In this document: piece after piece, positions 255 through 39,894 of the stretch
Position numbering within the stretch: position 1 is the stretch's first letter
Layout of the letters: every line of letters starts with the position of its first letter
Source: a virus
DNA length: 43,474 nucleotides
Strand: one strand, 5' to 3'
Virus record (IMG/VR): IMGVR_UViG_3300013022_000002
Location: 1-43,474 of that record
Translations under genes and position numbers: made by a program
The notes under the pieces: model-generated
What the model saw: the letters and a program-made list of their open reading frames with translations, nothing else
What the model was told of the DNA's origin: nothing
Databases searched by the model: none

Positions 255-1202
255 TTAGGGGAAAGGGTCAGAATCTCCGAATATTTTTTTTATTTCTCCG
301 TATGTTAAAATATTAGAGTAATGCTGCATATACTCTTCTTCATCTACTCTATAGCGTTTTAATTTAAAACCATCACCAACATTAGAAACTTTCCAAAATT
401 TGATCTCTCTTCTAAATCCTAAAAAAGCATTAATAATTAAGGCAATAGTTGATTCTTTGCAATTCATACCAAATATTACTGATTTCATAGATGGCTCGAT
501 GCCTCCGACACCTATTTTACCAAACAATCTCCATTCGGATTCATACCTCCAATCTCTAGATTTAGTAAGCATACAAACGTCTTCAATTTCATTGGGCATT
601 TTCCCAGTGTCTAACCACTGCTCAATCAAACTTACTTTAAGGTTTCGTGATCCTCCGTAAATAATTTTTTTTGCTATCCCATCATCAACATCACTCATAT
701 CATATTCGATGCATATTCCTTTATGATTATTAGCATAATGGGACCACATCAATGGACTGTCATATTTACTACTAAGGCACCATACTCCCTTCCTGAAAAC
801 ACTTACAATTTCTTCCTGAATCGTTTGCTGAAAACGATATTTTTTATAGTTATCAGGTTCTAAGTTTTCATTTTCATTGGAATAATAATTTACATCTTTT
901 AAAAATGACAACACATCTGATTCTGATAATAAAGAAACTTTCCTTTCCGATTCAGAGTCATTAAATTTAAATCTTTTAGTCATTGACGATAGTTCTTTCT
1001 CACTTTTCATCCTTATTAGTTTGCATGCCACTTTTTCAAGAACATCTAAAGAAACATCAACAACCACAACTGGCTTACAATCTAAGGGATCATTAAATTG
1101 GCTGGGATCAGAATAATAAGCAGTATGTGAAATCAAGCATTCCATTGTATTTTCATTAAATGAAAGGTACTTATACAAATTCGATGGGGTTTTATATGAC
1201 AT
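255..1202 (-). CDS. DUF2971-family protein (315 aa), function unknown
   Basis: Motifs LYKYLS...FNDPLD, LMWSHYANNHKGICIEYD and KSRDWRYESEWRL are typical of DUF2971. ATG start with a GAGGA SD 7 nt upstream; TATAAT -10 at 1241-1236 (minus). Strongly AT-rich. Confidence 0.75.
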   Translation of the reverse strand: MSYKTPSNLYKYLSFNENTMECLISHTAYYSDPSQFNDPLDCKPVVVVDVSLDVLEKVACKLIRMKSEKELSSMTKRFKFNDSESERKVSLLSESDVLSFLKDVNYYSNENENLEPDNYKKYRFQQTIQEEIVSVFRKGVWCLSSKYDSPLMWSHYANNHKGICIEYDMSDVDDGIAKKIIYGGSRNLKVSLIEQWLDTGKMPNEIEDVCMLTKSRDWRYESEWRLFGKIGVGGIEPSMKSVIFGMNCKESTIALIINAFLGFRREIKFWKVSNVGDGFKLKRYRVDEEEYMQHYSNILTYGEIKKIFGDSDPFP

Positions 1203-1304
1203 TAAACATCCTCACGAAACAAAAAATATTACATGATTATACTAAAGCAGAACAGTATAAGGGAACGGAGGTTTAAATCCTTTAATGCCGATAGGATCGA
1301 TCTT

Positions 1305-1330
1305 AAAAGCAGCCTGTTATTGCTGCTTTT
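1305..1330 (-). terminator. Hairpin terminator between the 4-TM gene and the DUF2971 gene
   Basis: AAAAGCAGC-ctgttatt-GCTGCTTTT: a 9-bp stem with A/T-run arms, so potentially bidirectional. It lies 55 nt downstream of the stop at 1385. Confidence 0.5.
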
Positions 1331-1384
1331 GTATTTTCTGCACCTTTCACCAGCAAAATTATGATAAAATTTCATATATTATTA

Positions 1385-2059
1385 TTAATTTTCTGGTGGG
1401 ACTGAATCCTTGCTAGCTCCGTTCGTGTCAACAGTTTCTGAAGTTACGTTTGTTACTGGCGTTACATCAGAGGCTGATGGAGCGGTAGTTGTATTCGTTA
1501 TCTTTTTTTTCGGCTTAGGATATATAAAATAGCTTGCAATAATTATTAAGCCAACAGCTATGCCTCCCCCACCAACACCATATATTACAGACCATTTTGC
1601 ATCCTGAAGGATTAAAATCAATATTGCTAATACAGCAAATATTATAGAAGCCACCGATAGCAGCATTGATATTCCACTATTTTTTTCAGACTTCATTATT
1701 TTCGATTCGAAATCAATTATTGATTGTTTTTTTTCATTATCAGTAAGGTGTACACCTTTGGCTTTGTATGTTTCAGTCAAATTTAAAAGAGCCTCTTTAT
1801 CCAAACCTAAATAGCCAGTAATAACACTTGCTATAGACAATACAATTGCAGCAACAAAAACCCCATTGCTAATTGAAACCCAATGTTCGAAGTCGTTAAA
1901 ATTCTGTTTAATCATTAGGGCGGTAAAAATATCCTTCTTTAAGAAAAAGAAATACACGGCCACAAGGATCGAAAGTACAGAAGCAGACAACTTACATTGT
2001 GCTGCGGCATCTCTTGAACGAATAGAATATGTGAAAGAAAAAGAGTCCAGATTATTCAT
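1385..2059 (-). CDS. Four-TM membrane protein (224 aa from the ATG at 2059), function unknown
   Basis: Four hydrophobic helices: LSASVLSILVAVYFFFL, GVFVAAIVLSIASVITGYLGL, GISMLLSVASIIFAVLAILILIL and VIYGVGGGGIAVGLIIIASYFIY. Thr/Ser/Pro-rich tail. GGAGG SD 4 nt before the ATG at 2059; the track start at 2074 has no SD. Confidence 0.7.
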   Translation of the reverse strand: MNNLDSFSFTYSIRSRDAAAQCKLSASVLSILVAVYFFFLKKDIFTALMIKQNFNDFEHWVSISNGVFVAAIVLSIASVITGYLGLDKEALLNLTETYKAKGVHLTDNEKKQSIIDFESKIMKSEKNSGISMLLSVASIIFAVLAILILILQDAKWSVIYGVGGGGIAVGLIIIASYFIYPKPKKKITNTTTAPSASDVTPVTNVTSETVDTNGASKDSVPPEN

Positions 2060-2145
2060 AAATCCTCCATGCATTAAAAAGTCTAATCAGTGTATTTCTT
2101 TTCAATTTTTTCCCCAAATGATATTTACTCATTTTAACTAATTTT

Positions 2146-3408
2146 TTACTTGACAACGGGAAGGTCAATAATGCTTGTCGTGTAAGATGGCGACAACATT
2201 TCACGCTTCATGGCCCAAGACTTCTCAATTCCCTGCCCCGCAAAAAATAAATTAGCCTTGCCGCTCTGGTTGAGCCCATCAACAACACGCATTAAAGCTT
2301 CGCTATTGGGCTGCGGGCGGTATTCATCAAAAAGGTTGAGCTGAGATACTCCCTGGCTGAAAAAGTCGCCCAGCATCACTCCTGCTTTCATATAGCGATG
2401 ACCGTCGAGCCATATCTGATCCAGAGCGTCCATAGCCACCAGGATAATGTCGCGGGTATCGTTAGAAGGTGTCAGTAACTTTCCAGCGGCCTGATTGCCA
2501 TAAAATACTTCTCCCTCTGCGTGCGGGCTGGTACGCACAAATACAGCAATCTGTTTGCAGTACTGCCTTTCTTTTCTGAGCTTTTCCGCTGCGCGTTCTG
2601 CAAAAGCACATATGGCCTGGCGCATATCTATGTATTCGGTGATACGTGATCCAAACGAACGTGAGCAAACTATCTGCTGTTTGGTTGGTGCGAACTCTTC
2701 AAGTTCTAAACAGGGCTCGCCACGCAGCTCCCTGACCGTGCGCTCAAGCACAACGTTAAAATGTTTACGGATGATATATGTGCTTTGGTCGGCCAGGTCT
2801 TTAGCCGTGGTGATACCCATGGCATTTAGCTTTTTACTGATGCGTCGCCCAACGCCCCAAACATCCTCAACAGGCACCAGTGCCATAAGCTTTCTCTGTC
2901 GGTCAATATTGGATAAGTCGAGTACTCCACCCGTCCTGGTCCACTTTTTGGCTGCGTGATTTGCCAGCTTCGCAAGCGTTTTGGTTTGCGCTATGCCAAC
3001 ACCGACAGTCAGGTGGGTTTCCTGTTTAACTCTGGCGCGCACCTTCCGCCCTAAATCTTCAAGTGATGTCAGGCGCTGCATGCCATCCAGGCACATGAAT
3101 GCCTCATCAATTGAATAAATCTCTACAGCCGGGCACATGTCCTCCAGTGTCGTCATGACGCGATTACTCATATCTGCGTAGAGCGCATAATTGGAACTGA
3201 AAACCTGCACACGATGACGTTTGAACTCATTCTTCAGCTTGAAATAAGGTGCCCCCATAGGTATCTGCAACGCTTTTGCTTCCGCTGAACGGGCAATCAC
3301 ACAACCATCGTTGTTGCTCAGAACCACTACCGGCTTACCACGAAGGTCAGGCCTGAAAACCGTTTCGCAACTGGCATAAAACGAATTAACATCAACCAAG
3401 GCGAACAT
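2146..3408 (-). CDS. umuC: UmuC-type Y-family translesion DNA polymerase (Pol V catalytic subunit homologue), 420 aa
   Basis: The N-terminus [45 protein letters not shown] and the internal [25 protein letters not shown] and [17 protein letters not shown] are near-collinear with E. coli UmuC along the full length. Confidence 0.92.
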
Positions 3409-3839: not shown

Positions 3840-3861
3840 GCCCGGTCACCGGGCTTTTTTT
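3840..3861 (+). terminator. Plus-strand intrinsic terminator abutting the tail-fibre stop codon
   Basis: GCCCGG-tca-CCGGGC followed by TTTTTTT on the plus strand. On the minus strand the hairpin is followed by AATGAC, so it is not a terminator in that orientation. Confidence 0.6.
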
Positions 3862-4982
3862 CAGGCATCCAGTCCGTCAATCGCCTTCATCCTTTTCTGA
3901 AGTTCAGAGATTACACTATCCTGCATGCTTACTTTTGCACTGAGTTCTTTGACGGCCTCTATCAGCAATGCAACCGGTCCCGCATAGTCAACAGTGAGAT
4001 AAGATTCCTCAGTTGATTTTCCAGTGGGTAACCAGTTCTCATCGAGAATCGGAGTAAATTTTGTGTTTTTCGTGACTACATCGGGAAGTACTTCGATAAG
4101 TTCCTGAGCGATGACACCAGCAGACGTGGTCTGACTGTCGTTGAGTACAAATGTATAGCCATTAATTTGCTGAACCTTTTCTAAAGCACCATCAATCTTT
4201 TTGATTTTTGACTTCTTGTTCCTGTCTGACGTCTGATTCAGCGCTACACAGGTAACGTTGCCCGGCACAGAAAAATCGCCATTTAATGCAAAGGTTGAGT
4301 ATTTGGGAGTTCCGTTAACGTTTGTGGCGATTGTAATTGAGCCGGAATTTTCCTGATAAACACGCGCAAAGGGAACATTATTACCCTGCCCGGCCATGAA
4401 AGTGAGAAAAGCAGGCCATCCGCCAGACGGGTTTGTCGAACGTATATTGAGATTATTTCCCTCTATGCTCACGCCACCAGTAATTACGCCCCCCGTCTTT
4501 CCGTCTACAGTACTAAATCTGGAGTCTGTCTGAGATGCTACAGATTTGCCAACATCACCACTTTTAAGCGTGCTCGAATACTGTTTTGCCATGTATCCCC
4601 AGCTCGGGCCGGTGAACATCGTTCTGTCCGGGCGAATCACATCAACTGACTGTGCATCACTGTAAATCTTCTGCCAGTTCTGAAAGTCCAGAATGCGTCC
4701 ACGCGCCACGCTGGCAAAGTCATTGAGGATTTTTTGGGTGATTGCCACCTTCAAAGATGCAGGTACTGCATTCCAGGCTAATCCGCTGGTTGTCGGGCCG
4801 TCGAACGCTACTGCAAGGGTCAGTTGTGTGTCTGATGTGATGTTAGCGGCCACCAGCGTGTAAGGCGCGCCACCTACAGTCACGTAAACGAAATCGCCCG
4901 TCTTCAGCTCTGTAGTAAAGCTGGTACCGCTTCCGTTTACTGTGGTTGAGTTATTGGTTAATGCGATAGTACCTGCTGACAT
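3861..4982 (-). CDS. Tail fibre protein with a C-terminal S74-type intramolecular chaperone domain (373 aa from the ATG at 4982)
   Basis: The C-terminal TSDRNKKSKIKKIDGALEKVQQINGYTF...AGVIAQELIEVLPDVV matches the auto-cleaving chaperone domain of phage fibres and endosialidases. GGAG SD before 4982. The track start at 5015 lies inside the upstream terminator. Confidence 0.8.
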   Translation of the reverse strand: MSAGTIALTNNSTTVNGSGTSFTTELKTGDFVYVTVGGAPYTLVAANITSDTQLTLAVAFDGPTTSGLAWNAVPASLKVAITQKILNDFASVARGRILDFQNWQKIYSDAQSVDVIRPDRTMFTGPSWGYMAKQYSSTLKSGDVGKSVASQTDSRFSTVDGKTGGVITGGVSIEGNNLNIRSTNPSGGWPAFLTFMAGQGNNVPFARVYQENSGSITIATNVNGTPKYSTFALNGDFSVPGNVTCVALNQTSDRNKKSKIKKIDGALEKVQQINGYTFVLNDSQTTSAGVIAQELIEVLPDVVTKNTKFTPILDENWLPTGKSTEESYLTVDYAGPVALLIEAVKELSAKVSMQDSVISELQKRMKAIDGLDA

Positions 4983-5003
4983 AGCGATCTCCGGGCAATA
5001 AAA

Positions 5004-5025
5004 AACCCGGCTCAATGGCCGGGTT
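5004..5025 (-). terminator. Intrinsic terminator after the lipoprotein moron
   Basis: The minus strand reads AACCCGGC-cattga-GCCGGGTT followed by TTTTTTATT. It lies 20 nt downstream of the stop at 5046 and just upstream of the fibre gene SD. Confidence 0.75.
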
Positions 5026-23909: not shown

Positions 23910-24260
23910 TCATTTCAACCTTTCTTTTGCGGTTTTGCTGCGGTGGCAGGGCCAGCACAGGGCCTCAAGGTTGATGTCATCATCGGTGCCCCCATGTGCT
24001 TTGGGTACGATGTGGTCAACGGTCTTGGCTGCTGTTGGCCTTCCGCTTCTTAGGCAGTTTTGGCAGAGATGCCGATCACGCTGCAGGATACGGGCCCTTA
24101 ACACATCCCACTTGCTGCCATAGCCGCGCTCATGCCTGCTCTGTCCCTGCTGATGTTGCTCCCAACCATGATTGCGGTGAGCCTCACAGTAACCTGAGCG
24201 GTCAGTTGTGGTCTTGGCGCAGCCGTGCTTCCTGCATGCTCTTGGTATCAGTGCTGGCAT
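23910..24260 (-). CDS. HNH endonuclease (terminase-associated), 116 aa from the ATG at 24260
   Basis: MPALIPRACRKHGC...CQNC...VDHIVPKAHGGTDDDINLEALCWPCHRSKT. GGAGG SD 4 nt before 24260. The track start at 24317 is a TTG with no SD. Confidence 0.85.
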   Translation of the reverse strand: MPALIPRACRKHGCAKTTTDRSGYCEAHRNHGWEQHQQGQSRHERGYGSKWDVLRARILQRDRHLCQNCLRSGRPTAAKTVDHIVPKAHGGTDDDINLEALCWPCHRSKTAKERLK

Positions 24261-24843
24261 CAAGCCTCCACGCCCTGCGGCGCTGTGTGCGTTGCTCATT
24301 GTCCGGGTGCTGCTCAACTATGTCCGAGTCTGCATGGTCAACAAGTGAATAGCATGGATAGATAACGTCGCCGCCATATGCATCACCAACCGCATAGTCG
24401 GCTGGCTTTGCGCTGTCCCATCTGGTCAGCACATCAGTGATACGATGCTGCGGTATACTGTAACAGACGCCGTGAATCAGCCTGCTCATGGTGATGTAGT
24501 CAGTCTGGCGCTGGTCGCTGTCGATAAGCTTTGTTGCCACCTCAAGCTGATACTGCGGAGGCCTGCCGGTTCCAAGATAGAAAGACAGGAGATCGTCAGG
24601 GAACCGGTTAATCCAGGCTTCAACCTTATCAGCGAACCCATCTACCAGCAGCGCATCATCTTCCATGATAACCACCCGACAGTTCTGCTGGCCTGCCCAC
24701 TCGATAGCGCGGCAGTGATTGGCGTTAGCGCCAGCGCCAATGTCATCAAGAAAAACGTATGCTTTAAGTGGTATCGCAAGATTAATGGCTGCTTCATATC
24801 GTGAGGGATGCGCCACAATGGCAAACTTTACTTGTGCTTCCAC
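24202..24843 (-). CDS. Putative GT-A-fold glycosyltransferase (213 aa)
   Basis: FAIVAHPSR...VVIMEDDALLVDGF (DXD-like) pattern. GTG start with an AAGGAG SD. Overlaps the upstream GT by 16 nt and the HNH gene by 59 nt. No TM segment. Confidence 0.5.
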   Translation of the reverse strand: MEAQVKFAIVAHPSRYEAAINLAIPLKAYVFLDDIGAGANANHCRAIEWAGQQNCRVVIMEDDALLVDGFADKVEAWINRFPDDLLSFYLGTGRPPQYQLEVATKLIDSDQRQTDYITMSRLIHGVCYSIPQHRITDVLTRWDSAKPADYAVGDAYGGDVIYPCYSLVDHADSDIVEQHPDNEQRTQRRRAWRLDASTDTKSMQEARLRQDHN

Positions 24844-26285
24844 AAGGCAAACTCCTTACCAAGGCCGTCAGACTTAAACACCGTGTGGATGCGCGGGCCT
24901 GTGACCAGTCGGTCACGGTACCGATAGGCAACAATGCCGAAAGCGATCATATCGCCAACGGATGATGCTGACTGCTCTTTTCCCCAGAACCGCAACGATT
25001 CGATGTGGTAATACAGCCGGACAATGCCATGCGCTATTGCCATCACATCAGCGCGGGTGCCACCCAGCAGGCCAGCGTTAAGCATCACATCATTTTGGTG
25101 CTCAGCAATGAATGTCTGAAAGATGGCTTCGGGATGAGACCGCTTAGCCCAGGTGTCGGCGTAAGTCTTTGGCTCAGAGCCAACGTAAATCTTTCTCTCT
25201 TCCATTTCCTGCCAGGGCTGCTGAAGCATTTCTACATCAGTGCCATCGGTACACCAGACAAATTGATATTCAGGGTGATCGCGCAAGTGCTGCCAGATAT
25301 GCAGCCAGCGCCTGAAGTAAACATTCATCTTCACATCAGGCACACGAAATAACTCGGTATCTGCCGGAACCGTGTCCAACTCATCAGCCAGGACGATGCG
25401 GCCACAACCACTGAGCGATGACGCCCACTTAGCCAGCAGGTCAGGTGAAGGTGTTATCTTCGTGCCGCGCTGTGGGTCCGGCTGGCTGGTCAGTAACGTG
25501 GTGATGACCACATTGCGCTTGTCGCGGTACTCAGCATATCCGGTATAGCCACTGTTACGGCGCTCGTTGTGAATCGTAACATTGCGCTTAACCTGTGCTT
25601 CACGATCTGGCTTTGGTACAGAACGCTCAACGGCCTGATGCTCATCAAGCGAGTAGATAAACTTTTGCGAACCGACCACATCAGCGAACGCCCATGATGT
25701 CAGGCCGGCATTGTGAATGCGCAACGCTAAATCTGAGTGCTCATACATGCCGCGCTGATAGATAGGATCAAAGCCACCCACCTTTTCAATCACACTGCGA
25801 TGGTAGTACAGCATCACGCCGCGCTGGCCTGTGTAGGCAACGTGTTTATCGTCACGGTACAACACGGCTATGTCATTGAGCTTTTGACCCGTGGCGAAGT
25901 CCTGAAACTGATAGGCAAGGTGCGGTTCGGGTGATTCGATATAGGGTCGCTCCCATCCACCAGCTACAGGCCATGCGTCATCATCCCACAGGAAAAGATG
26001 CTCACAGCCTGCATCAATCAGCGTCTGTAAGCTGGCGTTCTTAGATGCCACGATGCCGCGTGACACGTCACGGCGAATACCCCTGACACCAGCCGGAACA
26101 GCTACAGGAGTGTTTGACCCGTCATCTATCACAACCACCAGCGCACCAGCAGGAAGAAACTTAAGCTGATGCTCAAGGGCGCGGGATAAAACGTTATGGC
26201 GGTTGTGTGTGCTGATGGCTATACCAACATTTGATGCCCGGTCAGTAACTGGCGCATAGGCAATTCCATCAATCACCACTTCCAT
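24828..26285 (-). CDS. Two-domain glycosyltransferase (N-terminal GT2-like domain plus a second nucleotide-sugar-transferase-like domain), 485 aa
   Basis: GIAISTHNRHNVL...LVVVIDDGSN, HLFLWDDDAWP and VGGFDP are GT2 hallmarks. The C-terminal half has FVWCTDGTDVE and NAGLLGG motifs. No TM or signal peptide. Confidence 0.7.
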   Translation of the reverse strand: MEVVIDGIAYAPVTDRASNVGIAISTHNRHNVLSRALEHQLKFLPAGALVVVIDDGSNTPVAVPAGVRGIRRDVSRGIVASKNASLQTLIDAGCEHLFLWDDDAWPVAGGWERPYIESPEPHLAYQFQDFATGQKLNDIAVLYRDDKHVAYTGQRGVMLYYHRSVIEKVGGFDPIYQRGMYEHSDLALRIHNAGLTSWAFADVVGSQKFIYSLDEHQAVERSVPKPDREAQVKRNVTIHNERRNSGYTGYAEYRDKRNVVITTLLTSQPDPQRGTKITPSPDLLAKWASSLSGCGRIVLADELDTVPADTELFRVPDVKMNVYFRRWLHIWQHLRDHPEYQFVWCTDGTDVEMLQQPWQEMEERKIYVGSEPKTYADTWAKRSHPEAIFQTFIAEHQNDVMLNAGLLGGTRADVMAIAHGIVRLYYHIESLRFWGKEQSASSVGDMIAFGIVAYRYRDRLVTGPRIHTVFKSDGLGKEFALWKHK

Positions 26286-26402
26286 TCAGATTTTCCTACT
26301 CATCAGATAGATATAACCCTCGGCAATGGTTATACCACCAGCCGATGATTCATTGTGTTTATGCTGAAAAGTGAACTCATAGAATTCAGTTTTTAGCACA
26401 AA

Positions 26403-26426
26403 ATAAAAAACCGCCCGAAGGCGGTC
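26403..26426 (-). terminator. Strong intrinsic terminator after the DUF4411 gene
   Basis: The minus strand reads ACCGCC-ttcg-GGCGGT followed by TTTTTTTATTTT. It lies 25 nt after the stop at 26451. Confidence 0.85.
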
Positions 26427-26450
26427 TCGTAAATAACTTTTTTACTTTAA

Positions 26451-26951
26451 TTATGCAGCCATAACAAATGATGCATTTAATGCATGTAGCAAAGCAAATG
26501 TATCTGTGTAAGCCACTCCAAAGTGGTTACAAATGTTAGGAATGAGAAACTTTCGCTTGCAATCAAGGTTAAGTCTCTCATGCGTAACTATTGTCGCCCC
26601 AGTAGTTATGGCCTTAGCTATTAACCAAGTATCTGCTCCTCTAAGAAACTCATTCATAGCACCGGGGCTCATACGTCCTGTAGCCTGTTGCTGTGCAACA
26701 TGAGCAACTACAGACGCAAGGTTTTGCTGAGTAGTATTATCACTCACAGGCAGAAAAAAGTTACGATTAGCCTGAGCCCATACCTTAAGCTCATCATTTC
26801 CATTAACAAGCTCTTGATATATATTTTGAATGCTAAAAAGCCTACCGCCTTCGCAGCCATGTAACAACCAGTCCCAAAAGGCAGGGCAAAATGCCATATG
26901 GTAATATTTATTTTTAGCTTCTATAAAAACGTTCGCATCAATCAGATACAT
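26451..26951 (-). CDS. DUF4411 PIN-like domain protein (166 aa), putative nuclease effector
   Basis: MYLIDANVFIEAKNKYY...FCPAFWDWL...ELVNGNDELKVWA matches the DUF4411 pattern (PIN-like N-terminal Asp). Its ATG shares a base with the upstream TAA. Confidence 0.75.
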   Translation of the reverse strand: MYLIDANVFIEAKNKYYHMAFCPAFWDWLLHGCEGGRLFSIQNIYQELVNGNDELKVWAQANRNFFLPVSDNTTQQNLASVVAHVAQQQATGRMSPGAMNEFLRGADTWLIAKAITTGATIVTHERLNLDCKRKFLIPNICNHFGVAYTDTFALLHALNASFVMAA

Positions 26952-28093
26952 TAGGCACCAATTTCCGTTGCAAATTTTTTTAGTTTGGCGGGAGCTACAC
27001 CCAGTAGTTTACCAGCATCTCTCAACAAAACTCTGCCACTTAGAGCCTCGTCTAGTAATGCCCTGCTAAATCTCGCGCTGTTCTTATTCTGCGCACTAGC
27101 ATAAAAATTACCACCGCTGCCTTCTGCCTCATCAAAATCTCGCATGAGAGCACGGTAGTAATCTTGATAATCATCGTATGTAACCAAATTCAAATCATAT
27201 GCTCTTCGAATTACAACATACCGACTTACGTGGAAATGCCTAGCAATATTAGCAATGTTCACACTTAATTCTTTAAGTTCATCCCATAATCTCAGAACAC
27301 TAGCCTGAGGAGCTAAAAATTCACCCGCCACTTGATTGCAGAACCTTTCAACATGCAATTCTTCGTTGGCACTCGCAGAAGATATACCGCTCTGCCCAAT
27401 CCATAAATGTGCTAACTCATGGATTAACGTAAATAAACGAGCTGCAGGAGCATCCTTCAAATTAATGAAAACAATAGGAGCTAATGGGTCGCTGATGGCA
27501 AAACCACGAAATTCATTTATATCTAAGGGTCTATGTGTGTTGCTATCAACGATACCGCTTCTCATTACAAGGATGCCGGCATTTTCTGCAGAATCAACAA
27601 TGGTACGCTGGTATTGTTCCCAAGTCATACCCGCAGGATCAACTTCATTTAAACCGAGATAATTTTTAATCCTGATTGCGACATCAACAGGGTCATTTTG
27701 CAAAGTGATAGAACCTACAAAGTCTAGTGGAGAGGCTCCCTGATCCCGCAAGTAATCCTTGTACCAATCCTGTCTTCTTAAAACAGTAAAAATAGTGTCT
27801 TTGAGATTCACGCTGATGTTATCACGCATACCTACGTTTCTAATTGTACGCAGATCAGGTAAAGGAATAAGCTCATGAGGTGGCTCAGGCAAAAAAAGAT
27901 AAGCAAATGGTATACAAAGGCGGCCAGCCACCTTCTGAGCCTGAGAAAAAGTTGGTTTATCAACGCCTTGAATCCAACTTAAAACCTTTTCAATTTTGGC
28001 CCCCGTAGCGCGAGACAAATCCTCCTCAGAAACGCGAGCTCGGCTCTGCGCCCAAGTGATGATGTCAGGATTGATATAAGCTAAGTCAGCCAT
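26951..28093 (-). CDS. XRE-type HTH fused to an ImmA/IrrE-family (COG2856) zinc metallopeptidase, 380 aa
   Basis: N-terminal HTH region (LSRATGAKIEKVLSWIQGVDKPTFSQAQKVAGRLCIP). HEXXH motif in LIHELAHLWIG. About 100 aa of C-terminal extension. Confidence 0.8.
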   Translation of the reverse strand: MADLAYINPDIITWAQSRARVSEEDLSRATGAKIEKVLSWIQGVDKPTFSQAQKVAGRLCIPFAYLFLPEPPHELIPLPDLRTIRNVGMRDNISVNLKDTIFTVLRRQDWYKDYLRDQGASPLDFVGSITLQNDPVDVAIRIKNYLGLNEVDPAGMTWEQYQRTIVDSAENAGILVMRSGIVDSNTHRPLDINEFRGFAISDPLAPIVFINLKDAPAARLFTLIHELAHLWIGQSGISSASANEELHVERFCNQVAGEFLAPQASVLRLWDELKELSVNIANIARHFHVSRYVVIRRAYDLNLVTYDDYQDYYRALMRDFDEAEGSGGNFYASAQNKNSARFSRALLDEALSGRVLLRDAGKLLGVAPAKLKKFATEIGA

Positions 28094-28135
28094 AATTGCG
28101 CGCTTCAGTTTTTAAATTCCTTCATGTATGGATTC

Positions 28136-28165
28136 ATACTATAAGAAAAAACAACTTTTTTCCAA
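28136..28165 (-). promoter_or_regulatory. Candidate sigma70 promoter of the ImmA/DUF4411 cassette
   Basis: The minus strand reads TTGGAA (28165-28160), an 18-nt spacer, then TAGTAT (28141-28136). AT-rich gap between the Rz1 stop and the ATG at 28093. Confidence 0.4.
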
Positions 28166-28207
28166 GAATGCAAAAAAGATTGTCACCAAGTAAAGCCGTT
28201 TTCCTTA

Positions 28208-28787: not shown

Positions 28788-29209
28788 GAGATGAACACCC
28801 CTCGCTCTGCGGCACGGCGTTTAACAAGGCCTGCTAATTTCTTTCCGCCTGCGTTGACCCACTTGCCGAACTCATCTGCTGCGCCAGCGAAGTCGCCTGC
28901 GTTAAGCTTTTTAAGCAGCGTGGATTTTACGAAGTTGCCGGAACCCAGGTTGAACACAAATGACGCCAGCGCATCAAACTGATTTTGTGTCAGCTTCACT
29001 TTAACGTTGGTGTTAATGGTCAGTTCTGCCACCAGCAAATCTTCACGCAGATATTTGTCAGCCTGTTCGCCGGTAATCACATCCCCCATCTTTACGTCGT
29101 GGGTATGCCCATAGCCGATAGTGGGAATCCCTACGCTGTCGCGATATGCCTCAAGCTTCAGGCCTTCGAAACGCTTAATCAGGTCCATGCCCTTATTGCT
29201 GGTTTGCAT
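28784..29209 (-). CDS. R: Endolysin, GH24 (T4/P22-type lysozyme)
   Basis: GMDLIKRFEGLKLEAYRDSVGIPTIGYGHT is the catalytic Glu/Asp/Thr motif region. Confidence 0.92.
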   Translation of the reverse strand: MQTSNKGMDLIKRFEGLKLEAYRDSVGIPTIGYGHTHDVKMGDVITGEQADKYLREDLLVAELTINTNVKVKLTQNQFDALASFVFNLGSGNFVKSTLLKKLNAGDFAGAADEFGKWVNAGGKKLAGLVKRRAAERGVFIS

Positions 29210-29546
29210 CAGTATCCCCGGTTTTTCTGGCTATCCACCCGCGCAACTTGTCGCTGATGTAGTCATTACCCACATACCCGATATAAACCGCGAATACCTG
29301 TGCAGCGGCGTCAGGAATGTTCCAGTTAAATAAAGCGCCCATTACCTGAAGCGTCGGGCCAGCGAAGAACGCCAGCGCACTACATGAAACAGCGTCGAGA
29401 ACCCGCTTGCTCCACGGGCTTTTTGCATAGGCACTGCGTAATAGTGAAAACATGCCTGCTACCCCGGCATATCCCCATTCTGTTTTATGGGCGTACAGCC
29501 ACAGCAGCACTGTGGCCCAGAAGCCCGGGTCTTTTTCTGGAGGCAT
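29193..29546 (-). CDS. S: Class I holin, lambda S family (117 aa from the ATG at 29546; possible upstream GTG at 29564)
   Basis: MPPEKDP..., VLDAVSCSALAFF and AVYIGYVGNDYISDKLRGWIARKTG are collinear with lambda S ([44 protein letters not shown]). Confidence 0.85.
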   Translation of the reverse strand: MPPEKDPGFWATVLLWLYAHKTEWGYAGVAGMFSLLRSAYAKSPWSKRVLDAVSCSALAFFAGPTLQVMGALFNWNIPDAAAQVFAVYIGYVGNDYISDKLRGWIARKTGDTDANQQ

Positions 29547-29649
29547 GCGCTTAGTTCCCGCCACCGGAATGATGGCGGCTTGTTGTTGAGGAAAAGATTG
29601 CGCATCGCCACGGCGTCAAAATATGAGTGGTTGCTGATTGGCGAGCGCA

Positions 29650-29682
29650 AAAACGAAAAAAGGCCGCTCAATGGCGGCCTTT
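29650..29682 (-). terminator. Intrinsic terminator between the 82-aa moron and the holin gene
   Basis: The minus strand reads GGCCGC-cattga-GCGGCC followed by TTTTTTCGTTTTT. Confidence 0.75.
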
Positions 29683-29716
29683 ATGTTTGCTTTATGTGAA
29701 AAAAGTCTTCGACTCT

Positions 29717-29965
29717 TTAGTTACCGTTAAGCTTTGTTGACGGTGATTCAATTAACGACTCGATGAATTTTTTTTGCTGCGGGTTTAGATTGAGTTTCTG
29801 GATTTTCTTGATATCGACCTGATGGCTGGACTCACCTGGCTGAATCTTAGGAGCAACTCTTTCATTGTTTCCAGCGAAGGCAATAGCAACGACAATGCTC
29901 CATACAACGACACAAAACAGAATAACCAGTATCCATGTAACTCTTCTAGAGACTTTCAAAACCAC
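29717..29965 (-). CDS. Small N-terminally anchored membrane protein (80-82 aa), unknown function
   Basis: TM segment WILVILFCVVVWSIVVAIAFA followed by a Lys/Gln-rich soluble tail. The start is GTG (29965), or TTG (29959, 7 nt after AAGGA). AT-rich. Followed by its own terminator. Confidence 0.5.
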   Translation of the reverse strand: MVLKVSRRVTWILVILFCVVVWSIVVAIAFAGNNERVAPKIQPGESSHQVDIKKIQKLNLNPQQKKFIESLIESPSTKLNGN

Positions 29966-30258
29966 GTCCTTATCATGTGAAAGGAGTGATTAAGACAAAT
30001 CCGATCATCATAAGTTCTGTTTTTTTCATAACAAAGTTCTATTACCACTCAGAAAAACTTTGCGAAACAATACAGCGCATGAACAACCCTAAAAAGTGGT
30101 ATCTACATAGCACCTTAATTAGAAAATTTAACCAATAAGAGCTATTAGAACCATACGTGACCGAGAACAACTTAGTATTTGATGAGAGTCAATTAATAAC
30201 TTCACAAAACTATATTATTATAAAAAAGGATTTTCCCTGGAGTTGGCCGTTTTGGCCT

Positions 30259-30315
30259 CCCTCAAGTCATCCCTCCCAGGTTGCCGAGACCGTTGATGAC
30301 TTGAGGGAATTTTTT
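30259..30315 (+). terminator. Large plus-strand hairpin with a T-run (antisense to late transcription)
   Basis: Perfect 12-bp inverted repeat CCCTCAAGTCAT (30259-30270) / ATGACTTGAGGG (30296-30307), then AATTTTTTATT. Confidence 0.6.
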
Positions 30316-30474
30316 ATTAAAAATCGTGACAGGTTAACGATATGACTCGACCAAGAGCCTTCAATGTAAAGAAATACCTAACTTAATCCTCACTTCTCAG
30401 CCCATCAACCTAACCCGAAAGGGTTAATATTACTTTACTGGTTGAGTCCAGGAAGTAATTCATTTGTGTACTTG

Positions 30475-30509
30475 CCCGCCGTAATCCTTGGTTAGCGGCG
30501 GGATTTTTT
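30475..30509 (+). terminator. Second plus-strand intrinsic terminator
   Basis: CCCGCCG (30475-30481) / CGGCGGG (30496-30502) followed by ATTTTTT. Confidence 0.6.
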
Positions 30510-31223
30510 AAAACCCATTCCCGTACTCTTCACTGTAGAAATGCCCATACCAATAAAAAAGGGCACACTAAAGTGAGCCCTAAACCTTACAGTTTTTTCT
30601 TTTTCTGATTCCCAGTATGAGAGCAGATAATACTTAAATCTGTGAATAGACCTGCAAATGTGAGCGCTGACATTACCTAAGTCACTCTCGCTTCATCATG
30701 CATATGACTTTATGGTGAATCCAAAAAATTGCCCCACCCGGCGCTTGTCTCCGGCACTCGCAATGGCTTAGCTCTTGAAGGGGCTATTTAAATTTACAAT
30801 GATCCTTAATCTTGTTTTTTGCAAAAAATCACATTTTTTAAAATCGGATGCGGGAATTGAAAAAGGCCCGCCAGAGCCAGTCCTTAAGTGCTGTGAATTG
30901 TGGCTAAAAGTCTGCGGTGCTAGGTGCCTCCCAGTAAGCCTGTAATCCGTAAGCAGGCCTGCCATTGCAAGAGCGTTATTAACGAATTTTAGTTGGCCCC
31001 ACCGCACAGGGGGATACACCGCATTAAGCACAATGTATCAGCTAATTAATAAAACTAATACAAGCAGTTAAAAGCTCTGACGCCAATGCGATTAACAAAC
31101 TGGCACGTCTGCCCAGAGCAATCTTTTCGTAAAATTCACAATATGAAAGGCGCTACAGGTTTGCAGTCCTGGACAGAACGGTTAAACCGGCTGCGCTCAG
31201 TGCCTTTGGTATTGTGTGGAAAT

Positions 31224-31250
31224 GAAAAAACCCCGCCGTCTGGCGAGGTT
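31224..31250 (-). terminator. Candidate tR'-type terminator about 75 nt downstream of Q
   Basis: The minus strand reads CCTCGCC-agac-GGCGGGG (one mismatch) followed by TTTTTT. This is the position expected for the Q-dependent late-leader terminator. Confidence 0.55.
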
Positions 31251-31322
31251 TCTAATTTAAGAAGCTATGCGTTGTTACCACTCTTAACAGATTACATATA
31301 GAAATTCGTAACGAAAAGCAGA

Positions 31323-31724
31323 TTAAGCGGTTTTTTGAAAAATAGTTTTCTGAGTCGCTTCATACATCTCCAGCCGGGCATCTGTCATCAGTATGCAGGC
31401 ATCAATAAACGTTTCGGCTATCATAAGCTTTTGCCGCACTTTCCCTTCCGAACATTTAAGCCAGCGGGCTATTGTCGATTTGGATACGTCATAACGGTAG
31501 TGCGCCATAATTAAATCTAGCTCATCCAGGCGGCCAACCTTTTTAAGCATGCCGACTGCGGTATCTATAATCATGCCGTCATTGTCACAGCAGGAAGCAC
31601 GGCTACTGGTGCTTTTAGGCAGCAGTGTAATAAACATCGGGCTGGTTGGATTCCAGCTAATCTGAGTGCCTTCGCTTGCAGCCCAGCCGCCCCAACGCTC
31701 TAAAACCAGTTGAATGTCACGCAT
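31323..31724 (-). CDS. Q: Late-gene antiterminator Q (133 aa from the ATG at 31724)
   Basis: MRDIQLVLERWGGWAA... is a typical Q-family N-terminus. GGAGG SD. Last gene before the late leader and lysis genes. Confidence 0.8.
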   Translation of the reverse strand: MRDIQLVLERWGGWAASEGTQISWNPTSPMFITLLPKSTSSRASCCDNDGMIIDTAVGMLKKVGRLDELDLIMAHYRYDVSKSTIARWLKCSEGKVRQKLMIAETFIDACILMTDARLEMYEATQKTIFQKTA

Positions 31725-31745
31725 ATTAAATCCCCTCCACACACT

Positions 31746-39243: not shown

Positions 39244-39894
39244 ATGGTGGTGAGTTCATTAGGCGGGCGCTTAAGAGCGCTAAGGCAAGAACGAAAGTTA
39301 ACTCAGGGCCAGCTTGGAAAGGCGGTGGGTGTTTCTGACGTTACAGTGGGATACTGGGAACGTGATTTGAACACACCCGGGGGTAAATCACTTTCTAAAT
39401 TGGCCTCTTACCTAGGGGTAAGCGAAGCATATTTGTTGTACGGTAAAGAAGATGAATCCAACGTTGCTGCAGCACCAGTCGGAGCTCTCAAGGTACCGGT
39501 GATAAGTTATGTACAGGCCGGTCAATGGAGCCCGGAGAGTGATGCGCGGAATCTAGAAGGGAATATTGATTACGTGCTTAGTACCGGAAATTTTTCTAGA
39601 GGCACTTTCGCCTTAAAAATTAAAGGAAAGTCGATGGAGCCTGAGTTTGTCGAGGGTGATCTTATCCTTGTCGATCCAGAACTTAGACCCCAGCCTGGCG
39701 ATTACGTGGTTGCAAAAAACGGCGAAGATGAAGCTACTTTCAAAAAGTATAGAGCTCGTGGGGTCAATCAAGAAGGTAATGATATATTTGAATTGGTCCC
39801 ATTAAACGACGACTTTGCAGTGAGAAGCTCAGACAAAGAAAAGATCAATATTATCGGGGTCTTAGTCGAGCATAGGCGATTGATGCGCCGCTAA
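39244..39894 (+). CDS. cI: CI-type prophage repressor (XRE HTH + S24 LexA-like autopeptidase)
   Basis: HTH in LRQERKLTQGQLGKAVGVSDVTVGYWER. Ala-Gly site in VQAGQW. Catalytic GKSMEP Ser and FKKY Lys. Confidence 0.9.
   Translation: MVVSSLGGRLRALRQERKLTQGQLGKAVGVSDVTVGYWERDLNTPGGKSLSKLASYLGVSEAYLLYGKEDESNVAAAPVGALKVPVISYVQAGQWSPESDARNLEGNIDYVLSTGNFSRGTFALKIKGKSMEPEFVEGDLILVDPELRPQPGDYVVAKNGEDEATFKKYRARGVNQEGNDIFELVPLNDDFAVRSSDKEKINIIGVLVEHRRLMRR

Follow-up and report, generated by a model that had tools for sequence, protein, structure and literature searches.

A VapBC52-like toxin-antitoxin pair as probable accessory cargo of a lambdoid prophage

We analyzed a two-gene cassette in the IMG/VR virus record IMGVR_UViG_3300013022_000002, which was treated as one stretch of 43,474 nucleotides (positions 1 to 43,474 of the record; hereafter, the window). 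The first gene of the cassette (gene 1) encodes a protein with a helix-turn-helix (HTH) domain and a zinc peptidase domain of the ImmA/IrrE type, and the second (gene 2) encodes a DUF4411 protein with a PIN fold. We consider it probable that this cassette is a VapBC52-type member of the type II toxin-antitoxin (TA) modules and that it is an accessory insert, or "moron," in a lambdoid, HK97-like prophage whose host is Pantoea-like. Judged by sequences and structural models, the cassette is real and functional-looking. The family itself is already known, named, and mechanistically characterized, and what is new here is modest, namely, that the pair belongs to a proteobacterial, prophage-borne clade, that it is placed recurrently in the late region of lambdoid prophages, and that the cysteine switch described for the characterized antitoxin is absent. 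A TA family with one experimentally studied member so far, that of Mycobacterium tuberculosis, is hereby extended to enterobacterial temperate phages.

Relationship to VapBC52 of Mycobacterium tuberculosis

When searched by sequence against the PDB, each of the two proteins matches essentially one relative. Gene 1 alone retrieves only 9vzy_A (E = 2.3e-18, residues 9-349), and gene 2 alone retrieves only 9vzy_D (E = 1.9e-09) and 9vzz_A. With family profiles in place of single sequences, the match of gene 1 to 9vzy_A reaches E = 2.9e-35 (profile positions 7-354) and that of gene 2 to 9vzy_D reaches E = 6.2e-18. Entry 9vzy is the VapB52-VapC52 complex of M. tuberculosis, Rv2515c/Rv2514c (Singh et al., NAR, June 2026; PMC13273310). 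The fold library comprised PDB entries to April 2026, without 9vzy and 9vzz, whereas the sequence search used a newer 2026 copy of the PDB. For this reason, the fold searches gave only VapC, CapP, and IrrE structures, and the link to VapBC52 comes from the sequence search.

In the M. tuberculosis system, VapC52, a PIN-type tRNase, cleaves within anticodon or variable loops and is inactivated by the D6A mutation, and a single 43-kDa VapB52 clamps a VapC52 dimer with a stoichiometry of 1:2 (PMC13273310). Binding requires the HTH-like N-terminal domain of VapB52, which lies on the toxin dimer's outer face, and the C-terminal helices of VapB52 block the active site of VapC52. The middle domain is an IrrE/CapP-like zinc peptidase, which in the presence of single-stranded DNA (ssDNA) cleaves VapB52 itself at a conserved "FR" at the junction of the N-terminal and peptidase domains. 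In the auto-inhibited state Cys229 ligates the zinc, an arrangement that is termed a cysteine switch and is common to some CapP proteins (PMC13273310). The architecture had previously been predicted to be a three-component TA system, with Rv2515c named (Makarova 2009; PMC2701414), DUF4411.1 had been placed downstream of HTH-DUF955 (Matelska 2017; PMC5499597), and Rv2514c had been found to be toxic and to be rescued by Rv2515c (TASmania 2019; PMC6504116). The original prediction, which was made from the DNA of the window alone, knew of no experimental characterization of this exact pair and held that membership in an already named, characterized system would refute its own reading. At the family level the pair does belong to such a system, given the predictions of 2009 and 2017, the toxicity and rescue described in 2019, and the mechanism described in 2026.

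The window pair and VapBC52 have several features in common. Both consist of a DUF4411 PIN toxin with the same catalytic residues and an antitoxin of ~380-415 amino acids, in which an HTH N-terminal domain is followed by a linker, an IrrE-type HExxH peptidase, an HTH motif, and a helical C-terminus. Both are bicistronic with the antitoxin gene preceding the toxin gene, and both conserve an aromatic/Leu-Arg motif at the junction of the N-terminal and peptidase domains, which reads D-L-R in the window and D-F-R in VapB52. Furthermore, the proteins whose folds match the model of gene 1 (CapP, IrrE, PrpR, and C.Csp231I) are the homologs listed for VapB52. The two differ in setting, given that the window represents a lambdoid prophage of a gammaproteobacterial host whereas VapBC52 is encoded on an actinobacterial chromosome. 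We regard the window pair as an intact, prophage-borne relative of VapBC52 and as a plausible phage-defense or addiction module.

The toxin and the antitoxin

Sequence comparison and modeling together show gene 2 to encode a predicted PIN-fold nuclease with a complete set of conserved acidic residues. The protein is a full-length DUF4411 member (Pfam, 1.9e-47) and also falls into PHROG 11126, a family of unknown function. Its AlphaFold (AF2) model has a PIN fold with a predicted local distance difference test score (pLDDT) of 95.3, and the top fold matches in the PDB are VapC11, FitB, VapC15, and a Shigella VapC. Residues D5, E47, D53, D107, and E125 do not vary among 39 diverse relatives. D5 belongs to the PIN-like acidic motif LIDANVF, which had been noticed at the outset along with the assignment to DUF4411, and aligns to D6 of VapC52.

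For gene 1, the same kinds of evidence show a putative antitoxin composed of an XRE-type HTH domain, a flexible linker with an invariant D-L-R, a zinc peptidase with an embedded HTH motif, and a four-helix C-terminus. The protein matches Pfam Peptidase_M78 (1.6e-13, residues 170-298) and, over its full length, PHROG 2439. The four parts of its AF2 model (pLDDT 82) are an N-terminal domain of five helices, a linker predicted to be disordered (residues 76-91), a peptidase core with a helical HTH-like subdomain, and four short C-terminal helices. The N-terminal helices span residues 9-19, 23-30, 34-41, 49-59, and 63-67. Although a Pfam scan of the protein itself detected no XRE HTH, the presence of this domain, as originally predicted, is supported by the PF01381/PF13560 HTH found in many homologs, by the family profile, which matches the HTH proteins C.Csp231I and those of MBF type, and by the model, whose first 67 residues superpose on C.Csp231I with a root mean square deviation of 1.4-1.6 Å.

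In the linker motif, D80 and R82 are invariant in 198 of 198 gene 1 relatives and position 81 is leucine in 195 of them and phenylalanine in 3. It aligns to the D-F-R of 9vzy_A, and more distant relatives on viral contigs carry P-D-F-R-T. The motif lies within the sole long low-confidence segment of the model (pLDDT ~37), which is the position expected for it, since a cleavable linker should be disordered. By analogy with VapB52, L81-R82 is the predicted self-cleavage site of the gene 1 protein.

The peptidase domain retains an intact HEXXH motif (HELAH), in agreement with the original assignment to ImmA/IrrE. H225, H229, and E249 are invariant in all 198 relatives, of which 197 also have E226. 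The position of the VapB52 switch residue Cys229 is occupied by S238, which is serine in 196 of the 198 relatives and in 57 of 58 copies from viral contigs, and the short β-strand formed by residues 236-238 is still present in the model. The best structural matches of the model are CapP (7t5t), IrrE (3dti), and PprI (8slm/8sln), and PrpR is matched as well. The helices of the C-terminal domain span residues 330-337, 340-351, 357-364, and 368-377, with G353, L356, R358, and A360 conserved in the motif of this region, and by analogy with VapB52 the domain would occlude the toxin's active site.

Linkage, selection, and distribution

The pair is conserved across genomes, as a survey of gene neighborhoods made clear. 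In all 80 species genomes that encode a relative of the DUF4411 protein (35-69% identity), a gene 1 homolog lies directly upstream on the same strand, and in nearly all of them the two genes overlap or are at most 10 nucleotides apart. Of these gene 1 homologs, 76 have their full length, two run into a contig end (L049 and L058), one is interrupted (L067), and one is truncated (L077). The genomes include several classes of Proteobacteria as well as Acidobacteria, Spirochaetes, Gemmatimonadota, and Cyanobacteria, and most of the loci are not prophages. Among IMG/VR contigs, the pair is adjacent in 58 of 60, and the remaining 2 are cut at the contig end. The ratio of nonsynonymous to synonymous substitutions (dN/dS), computed for both genes against Pantoea and IMG/VR relatives, is 0.04-0.22, which indicates purifying selection.

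Two of the loci counted above depart from the common arrangement. In Vreelandella massiliensis (L067:6606-8001) an insertion of ~1.4 kb interrupts the gene 1 homolog and leaves the toxin gene intact, and in a gammaproteobacterial metagenome-assembled genome (L077) gene 1 is reduced to its last ~90 residues, upstream of an intact toxin gene. These may be decayed or otherwise neutralized modules.

The nearest relatives of gene 1 are 91% identical and are found at the same site in Pantoea ananatis prophages, at least two of which differ in their packaging modules; those of gene 2 are 89% identical (P0001 and the IMG/VR contig L096). In lambdoid prophages of Klebsiella and Salmonella, copies with 64% identity lie in the interval from the Q antiterminator to the holin, and a Rouxiella copy also lies directly after Q. 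In phage mEp390, a gene for a 485-residue protein follows the lysis genes and the cassette site is empty. The pair has settled repeatedly at late-region accessory sites, which in Pantoea lie between Rz and the packaging genes and in Klebsiella and Salmonella between Q and the holin. Two Klebsiella prophages that carry the 64%-identical pair (L087:11479-11772 and L090:11479-11772) also encode, after the lysis genes, a protein of the Acb2/Tad1-hairpin family, an anti-CBASS/anti-Thoeris sponge fold; in these prophages, defense and counter-defense cargo would therefore share the same late region.

No near-identical DNA of the cassette was found in 50,697 phage records or in 5,426 Escherichia coli genomes, and the exact proteins are absent from a collection of 5.8 billion clusters, in which the best matches are 91% and 89% identical. 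A protein search of the deposited phage genomes found relatives in 2 of the 50,697, both of them uncultured phages and both at 26% identity, so that the module is essentially unrepresented among isolated phages. Outside prophages, the neighbors are heterogeneous and comprise many transporters and metabolic genes, a few type I/III restriction-modification (R-M) genes, and integrases. As to enrichment in defense islands or prophage hotspots, a question raised with the original prediction, recurrent prophage sites in the late region were found, and the association with R-M genes is only suggestive, as the scan of 137 immediate neighbors in ~70 genomes had no background set for enrichment.

Comparison with other systems

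Besides VapBC52, a system with a similar mode of working is RosmerTA (RmrT/RmrA; Millman et al. 2022; Ernits et al. 2023), which is likewise a two-gene TA system whose antitoxin has an HTH and an ImmA-type zinc peptidase. RosmerTA has a proven anti-phage role, some of its members are encoded by phages, and its toxins are swappable (Millman et al. 2022; Ernits et al. 2023). In NetFlax, the D25 antitoxin node has links to PIN-like toxins as well. In contrast to gene 2, however, the characterized RmrT toxins depolarize the membrane and are not PIN nucleases. Fifteen RmrA models of PADLOC match gene 1, all of them in the peptidase core (best match 1.9e-16, protein residues 191-318 to model positions 161-282 of 363), and the NCBIfam model of the spr1629 antitoxin reaches 45.7 bits, with its cut-off at 335. 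Because RmrA matches only this core and no RmrT model matches gene 2, we dropped an assignment to RosmerTA.

In structure, the peptidase and HTH-motif core is matched best by the CBASS regulators CapP/CapH and the Deinococcus pair IrrE(PprI)/DdrO. These systems sense DNA damage or ssDNA and then cleave an HTH protein. They have a separate HTH substrate, whereas in gene 1 the predicted HTH substrate is fused to the protease. Furthermore, the C-terminus of gene 1 consists of four short helices and not of a C-terminal GAF domain, and the cassette adjoins phage lysis and packaging genes whereas CapH/CapP and IrrE/DdrO adjoin the defense or repair operon that they regulate. By analogy with VapBC52, the output of the window pair would be the release of a nuclease, unlike that of either system.

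Canonical VapBC modules share the PIN-fold toxin with the window pair, yet canonical VapB antitoxins are DNA-binding proteins of ~70-100 amino acids (8-13 kDa), whereas the window antitoxin is a 43-kDa predicted enzyme. The stoichiometry also sets the VapBC52 homolog, with 1:2, apart from canonical VapBC, with 2:2 or 4:4. Finally, PD-lambda-2 (Vassallo et al. 2022) resembles the cassette in being a defense locus of Enterobacteria that is borne by prophages or other mobile elements and encodes a fusion of an Xre HTH and a peptidase. It differs in having three genes, a HigB-like partner, and a P4-type antitoxin, in that the peptidase fusion is itself toxic, and in having no PIN protein.

Proposed function and alternative explanations

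We propose a mechanism that follows from what is known of VapBC52. One antitoxin would clamp a toxin dimer, with its N-terminal domain on the outer face and its C-terminal domain covering the active site. Once activated by a cue of infection or DNA damage (for VapB52, ssDNA), the peptidase would cut its own linker at L81-R82 so that the complex falls apart. The freed PIN toxin would then cleave tRNA in the anticodon or variable loop, translation would stop, and the infection would be aborted. The genomic context suggests that a promoter of its own would drive expression of the cassette in the lysogen and that its terminator would insulate it from the late operon. Given this context, the most likely role of the module is to protect the population of lysogens from superinfecting phages through abortive infection, with stabilization of the prophage as a side effect. 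If this is true, a module composed of a self-cleaving antitoxin and a tRNase, which PADLOC v2 does not recognize, joins the superinfection defenses encoded by prophages. Previously, it was indeed posited that a sensor protease with an HTH controls a PIN nuclease in a TA-like or abortive-infection module, and homology to VapB52/VapC52 favors that view. The accompanying expectation that the protease cleaves a separate cognate repressor, in the manner of ImmA/ImmR or IrrE/DdrO, does not hold, as the homolog VapB52 cuts its own toxin-binding N-terminal HTH domain.

A number of findings weigh against this interpretation. The identity between the window proteins and VapBC52 is only ~25-30% over the aligned parts, and the neutralizing C-terminal domain is not alignable to VapB52 by sequence, the agreement being in predicted secondary structure only. 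The switch residue Cys229 of VapB52 is replaced by a near-invariant serine in the window clade. A PADLOC check of the cassette, suggested with the original prediction, made no call, in that it found no complete known defense system and no family that matches gene 2 at E <= 0.01. R-M genes make up only about one tenth of the neighbors outside prophages, and promoter-like matches in the region are not in excess of chance (3, compared with 4.7 ± 2.2 in shuffles). Moreover, overexpressed VapC52 alone protects M. smegmatis from phage D29 whereas toxin and antitoxin together did not (PMC13273310), so that a defense role of the intact module is unproven even for VapBC52.

The serine at the switch position implies that the activation step may differ from that of VapB52 and is not simply transferable from it. 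Nevertheless, the cysteine switch occurs in only 33% of CapP proteins and is lacking in IrrE/PprI; because the window antitoxin shares its absence with the other 67% of CapP proteins and with IrrE, Ser238 does not preclude activation that depends on a signal. As the self-cleavage motif and the zinc site are kept while serine replaces cysteine, the proteobacterial and prophage clade may be switched on by another mechanism or signal than VapB52, an idea that we hold only tentatively and judge to be on the doubtful side. A phage protein would be one candidate trigger; another would be the same ssDNA/SOS signal by which the prophage is itself induced via its LexA-like CI repressor. Since the cassette lies within the late operon, superinfection defense could be coupled to the induction state of the prophage, for instance if Q-dependent read-through replenishes the antitoxin during the lytic growth of the prophage itself. 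With serine in place of cysteine, this clade makes it possible to test concretely whether signal-dependent activation in the VapBC52-type family requires the proposed cysteine switch.

A serious, although rather unlikely, rival to the defense role is that the pair is mainly an addiction module, which would stabilize the prophage or the cassette by post-segregational killing and would provide no defense against other phages. The proteins and their architecture fit either role, relatives are found on 46 plasmids, 25 of which are conjugative, and also as isolated cassettes among housekeeping genes, a pattern typical of selfish TA loci; moreover, the complete VapBC52 pair failed to protect against phage D29. 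Nevertheless, a simple module with a labile antitoxin would have no use for a conserved, to judge by its sequence apparently active, signal-responsive peptidase or for an invariant self-cleavage motif. In addition, accessory sites in the late region of prophages harbor the pair repeatedly, type I/III R-M genes are its neighbors in some cases, and the related RosmerTA systems with ImmA-type antitoxins defend against phages. We therefore favor a defense role for the VapBC52-type module over pure addiction.

It was also considered that gene 1 acts as an ImmA-like anti-repressor or regulator of the lysis-lysogeny switch of the prophage, with gene 2 as an accessory nuclease of the lytic cycle. ImmA/IrrE proteases of mobile elements classically cleave the repressor of the element, as in ImmA/ImmR and IrrE/DdrO, and the cassette is co-oriented with the late operon. 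However, the prophage encodes its own LexA-like CI repressor (HTH_3 and Peptidase_S24, 39244..39894), and the pair is self-contained in 80 of 80 genomes, most of the loci being outside prophages. Its site varies from prophage to prophage, the related phage mEp390 lacks it, and the closest characterized homolog cleaves itself rather than a separate repressor. An ImmA/ImmR-type prophage switch was thus rejected on account of the S24 repressor and of the mobility of the pair independently of prophages, and a regulatory role of this general kind is very improbable. Equally improbable is a reversal of roles in the style of PD-lambda-2, in which the HTH-peptidase would be the toxic effector and the small protein its modulator: the E. 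coli PD-lambda-2 Xre-peptidase fusion is toxic when overexpressed alone and is rescued by its HigB-like partner, and PADLOC gives a weak PD-Lambda-2_B match to gene 1 (E = 5.5e-4), but this match is limited to ~80 residues of the peptidase core, the partner in the window has the intact active site of a PIN nuclease and is not HigB-like, and in VapBC52 the DUF4411 protein is the toxin that the fusion protein neutralizes.

Layout and local signals of the cassette

The features of the cassette are listed in Table 1. The two genes are translationally coupled, with base 26951 common to the TAA stop codon of gene 1 and the ATG start codon of gene 2, as a check of the open reading frames confirmed. 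The cassette is also richer in AT than its phage neighbors, as had been noticed from the sequence: the guanine-plus-cytosine (GC) content is 0.40-0.42 over ~26200-28200 (~41% in the cassette) and 0.50-0.55 on either side.

Table 1. Coordinates of the features of the cassette in the window
Feature	Coordinates	Strand	Description
Gene 1	26951..28093	(-)	380 amino acids; putative VapB52-type antitoxin: HTH + ImmA/IrrE M78 peptidase + C-terminal helical domain
XRE-type HTH N-terminal domain, residues 9-67	27893..28069	(-)	Five helices; AF2 + profile
Linker motif P79-D80-L81-R82-T83	27845..27859	(-)	Aligns to VapB52 "FR" motif; predicted autocleavage site
Peptidase_M78 (ImmA/IrrE) domain	27200..27586	(-)	H225-E226-x-x-H229 at 27407-27421; third zinc ligand E249
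C-terminal four-helix domain, residues 330-377	26963..27106	(-)	AF2; motif LSGRxLLRDAGxLLG
Gene 2	26451..26951	(-)	166 amino acids; putative DUF4411 PIN-fold toxin, VapC52-type
Promoter-like element TTGGAA-16-TATAGT	28165..28138	(-)	~45 nucleotides 5' of gene 1 ATG; motif scan
Imperfect palindrome CTTTTTTGCA-ttct-TGGAAAAAAG	28155..28178	(.)	Overlaps -35 hexamer; candidate operator
Intrinsic terminator GAGACCGCC-TTCG-GGCGGTTTT then T-run	26398..26428	(-)	Hairpin scan

The stretch upstream of gene 1 that was first read as TTGGAA-18-TAGTAT was rescanned as TTGGAA-16-TATAGT. As the match is no better than chance, the call of a promoter of its own for the cassette rests on the position of the element and on its conservation in close relatives, that is, in the copies of the cassette in Pantoea prophages. 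The palindrome that overlaps the -35 hexamer could, speculatively, serve as an operator for autoregulation. An operator common to the family was tried as a candidate and is not claimed as a feature: the T6...A6 palindrome over the -35 hexamer occurs only in the window and in the Klebsiella and Salmonella prophage copies. It lies at -80 to -84, was counted in 10 of 93 upstream regions, the majority of which are non-independent, and overlaps the T-tail of an upstream terminator in the Klebsiella and Salmonella prophage relatives.

The strong terminator proposed after gene 2 was recovered by the hairpin scan. Its hairpin, at 26428..26407, has a stem of 9 bp with 5 G-C pairs and a loop of 4 nucleotides, is followed by a T-run, and was graded strong. 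Relatives from Pantoea and IMG/VR likewise have a hairpin with a T-run after gene 2, and in the Klebsiella version an equivalent hairpin and T-run are made of different sequence.

In many Comamonadaceae/Burkholderiales copies of the pair (L004, L006, L007, L013, L016, L033, L038, L046, and L047), a TAGAAT- or TAAAAT-like hexamer ends ~6-10 nucleotides before the start of the antitoxin gene, which suggests leaderless or near-leaderless antitoxin transcripts in this clade.

Genomic setting and neighboring genes

On its upstream side the cassette adjoins the Rz/Rz1 lysis genes (Rz1/LysC, E = 8.6e-10), and the block downstream of it encodes a 485-residue protein, a 213-residue protein, an HNH protein (3.9e-15), and terminase. 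The position originally described, between Rz/Rz1 and a block of glycosyltransferase, HNH, and terminase genes, thus holds for all but the glycosyltransferase label, since the 485-residue neighbor has only a sub-threshold match to Glycos_transf_2 (E = 0.032). The genes for the 485- and 213-residue proteins (24202-26285), neither of which has a significant Pfam match, are kept at the same position in Pantoea prophages and in phage mEp390 (~75% DNA identity).

A region of 1.76 kb (29565-31322) between the Q antiterminator (31323..31742) and the holin (29193..29564) has a GC content of 36-43%, is mostly noncoding, and is ~1 kb longer in the window than in a related Pantoea prophage (L081). This gap is the classic accessory site at which the Klebsiella and Salmonella prophages carry their copy of the TA pair. 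In the window it holds Rfam matches on the minus strand to rydB (30724-30784, 77.5 bits) and STnc100 (30853-31054, 65.1 bits), together with a small open reading frame (29717..29965) whose product resembles a membrane protein.

Past the tail-fiber gene (3861..5015), whose product has a Peptidase_S74 chaperone domain, the region 255-3408 resembles a second cargo region at the end of the prophage. It encodes a UmuC-like Y-family polymerase (2146..3408; IMS, 1e-39), an unassigned 229-residue open reading frame product (1385..2074), and a DUF2971 protein (255..1202).

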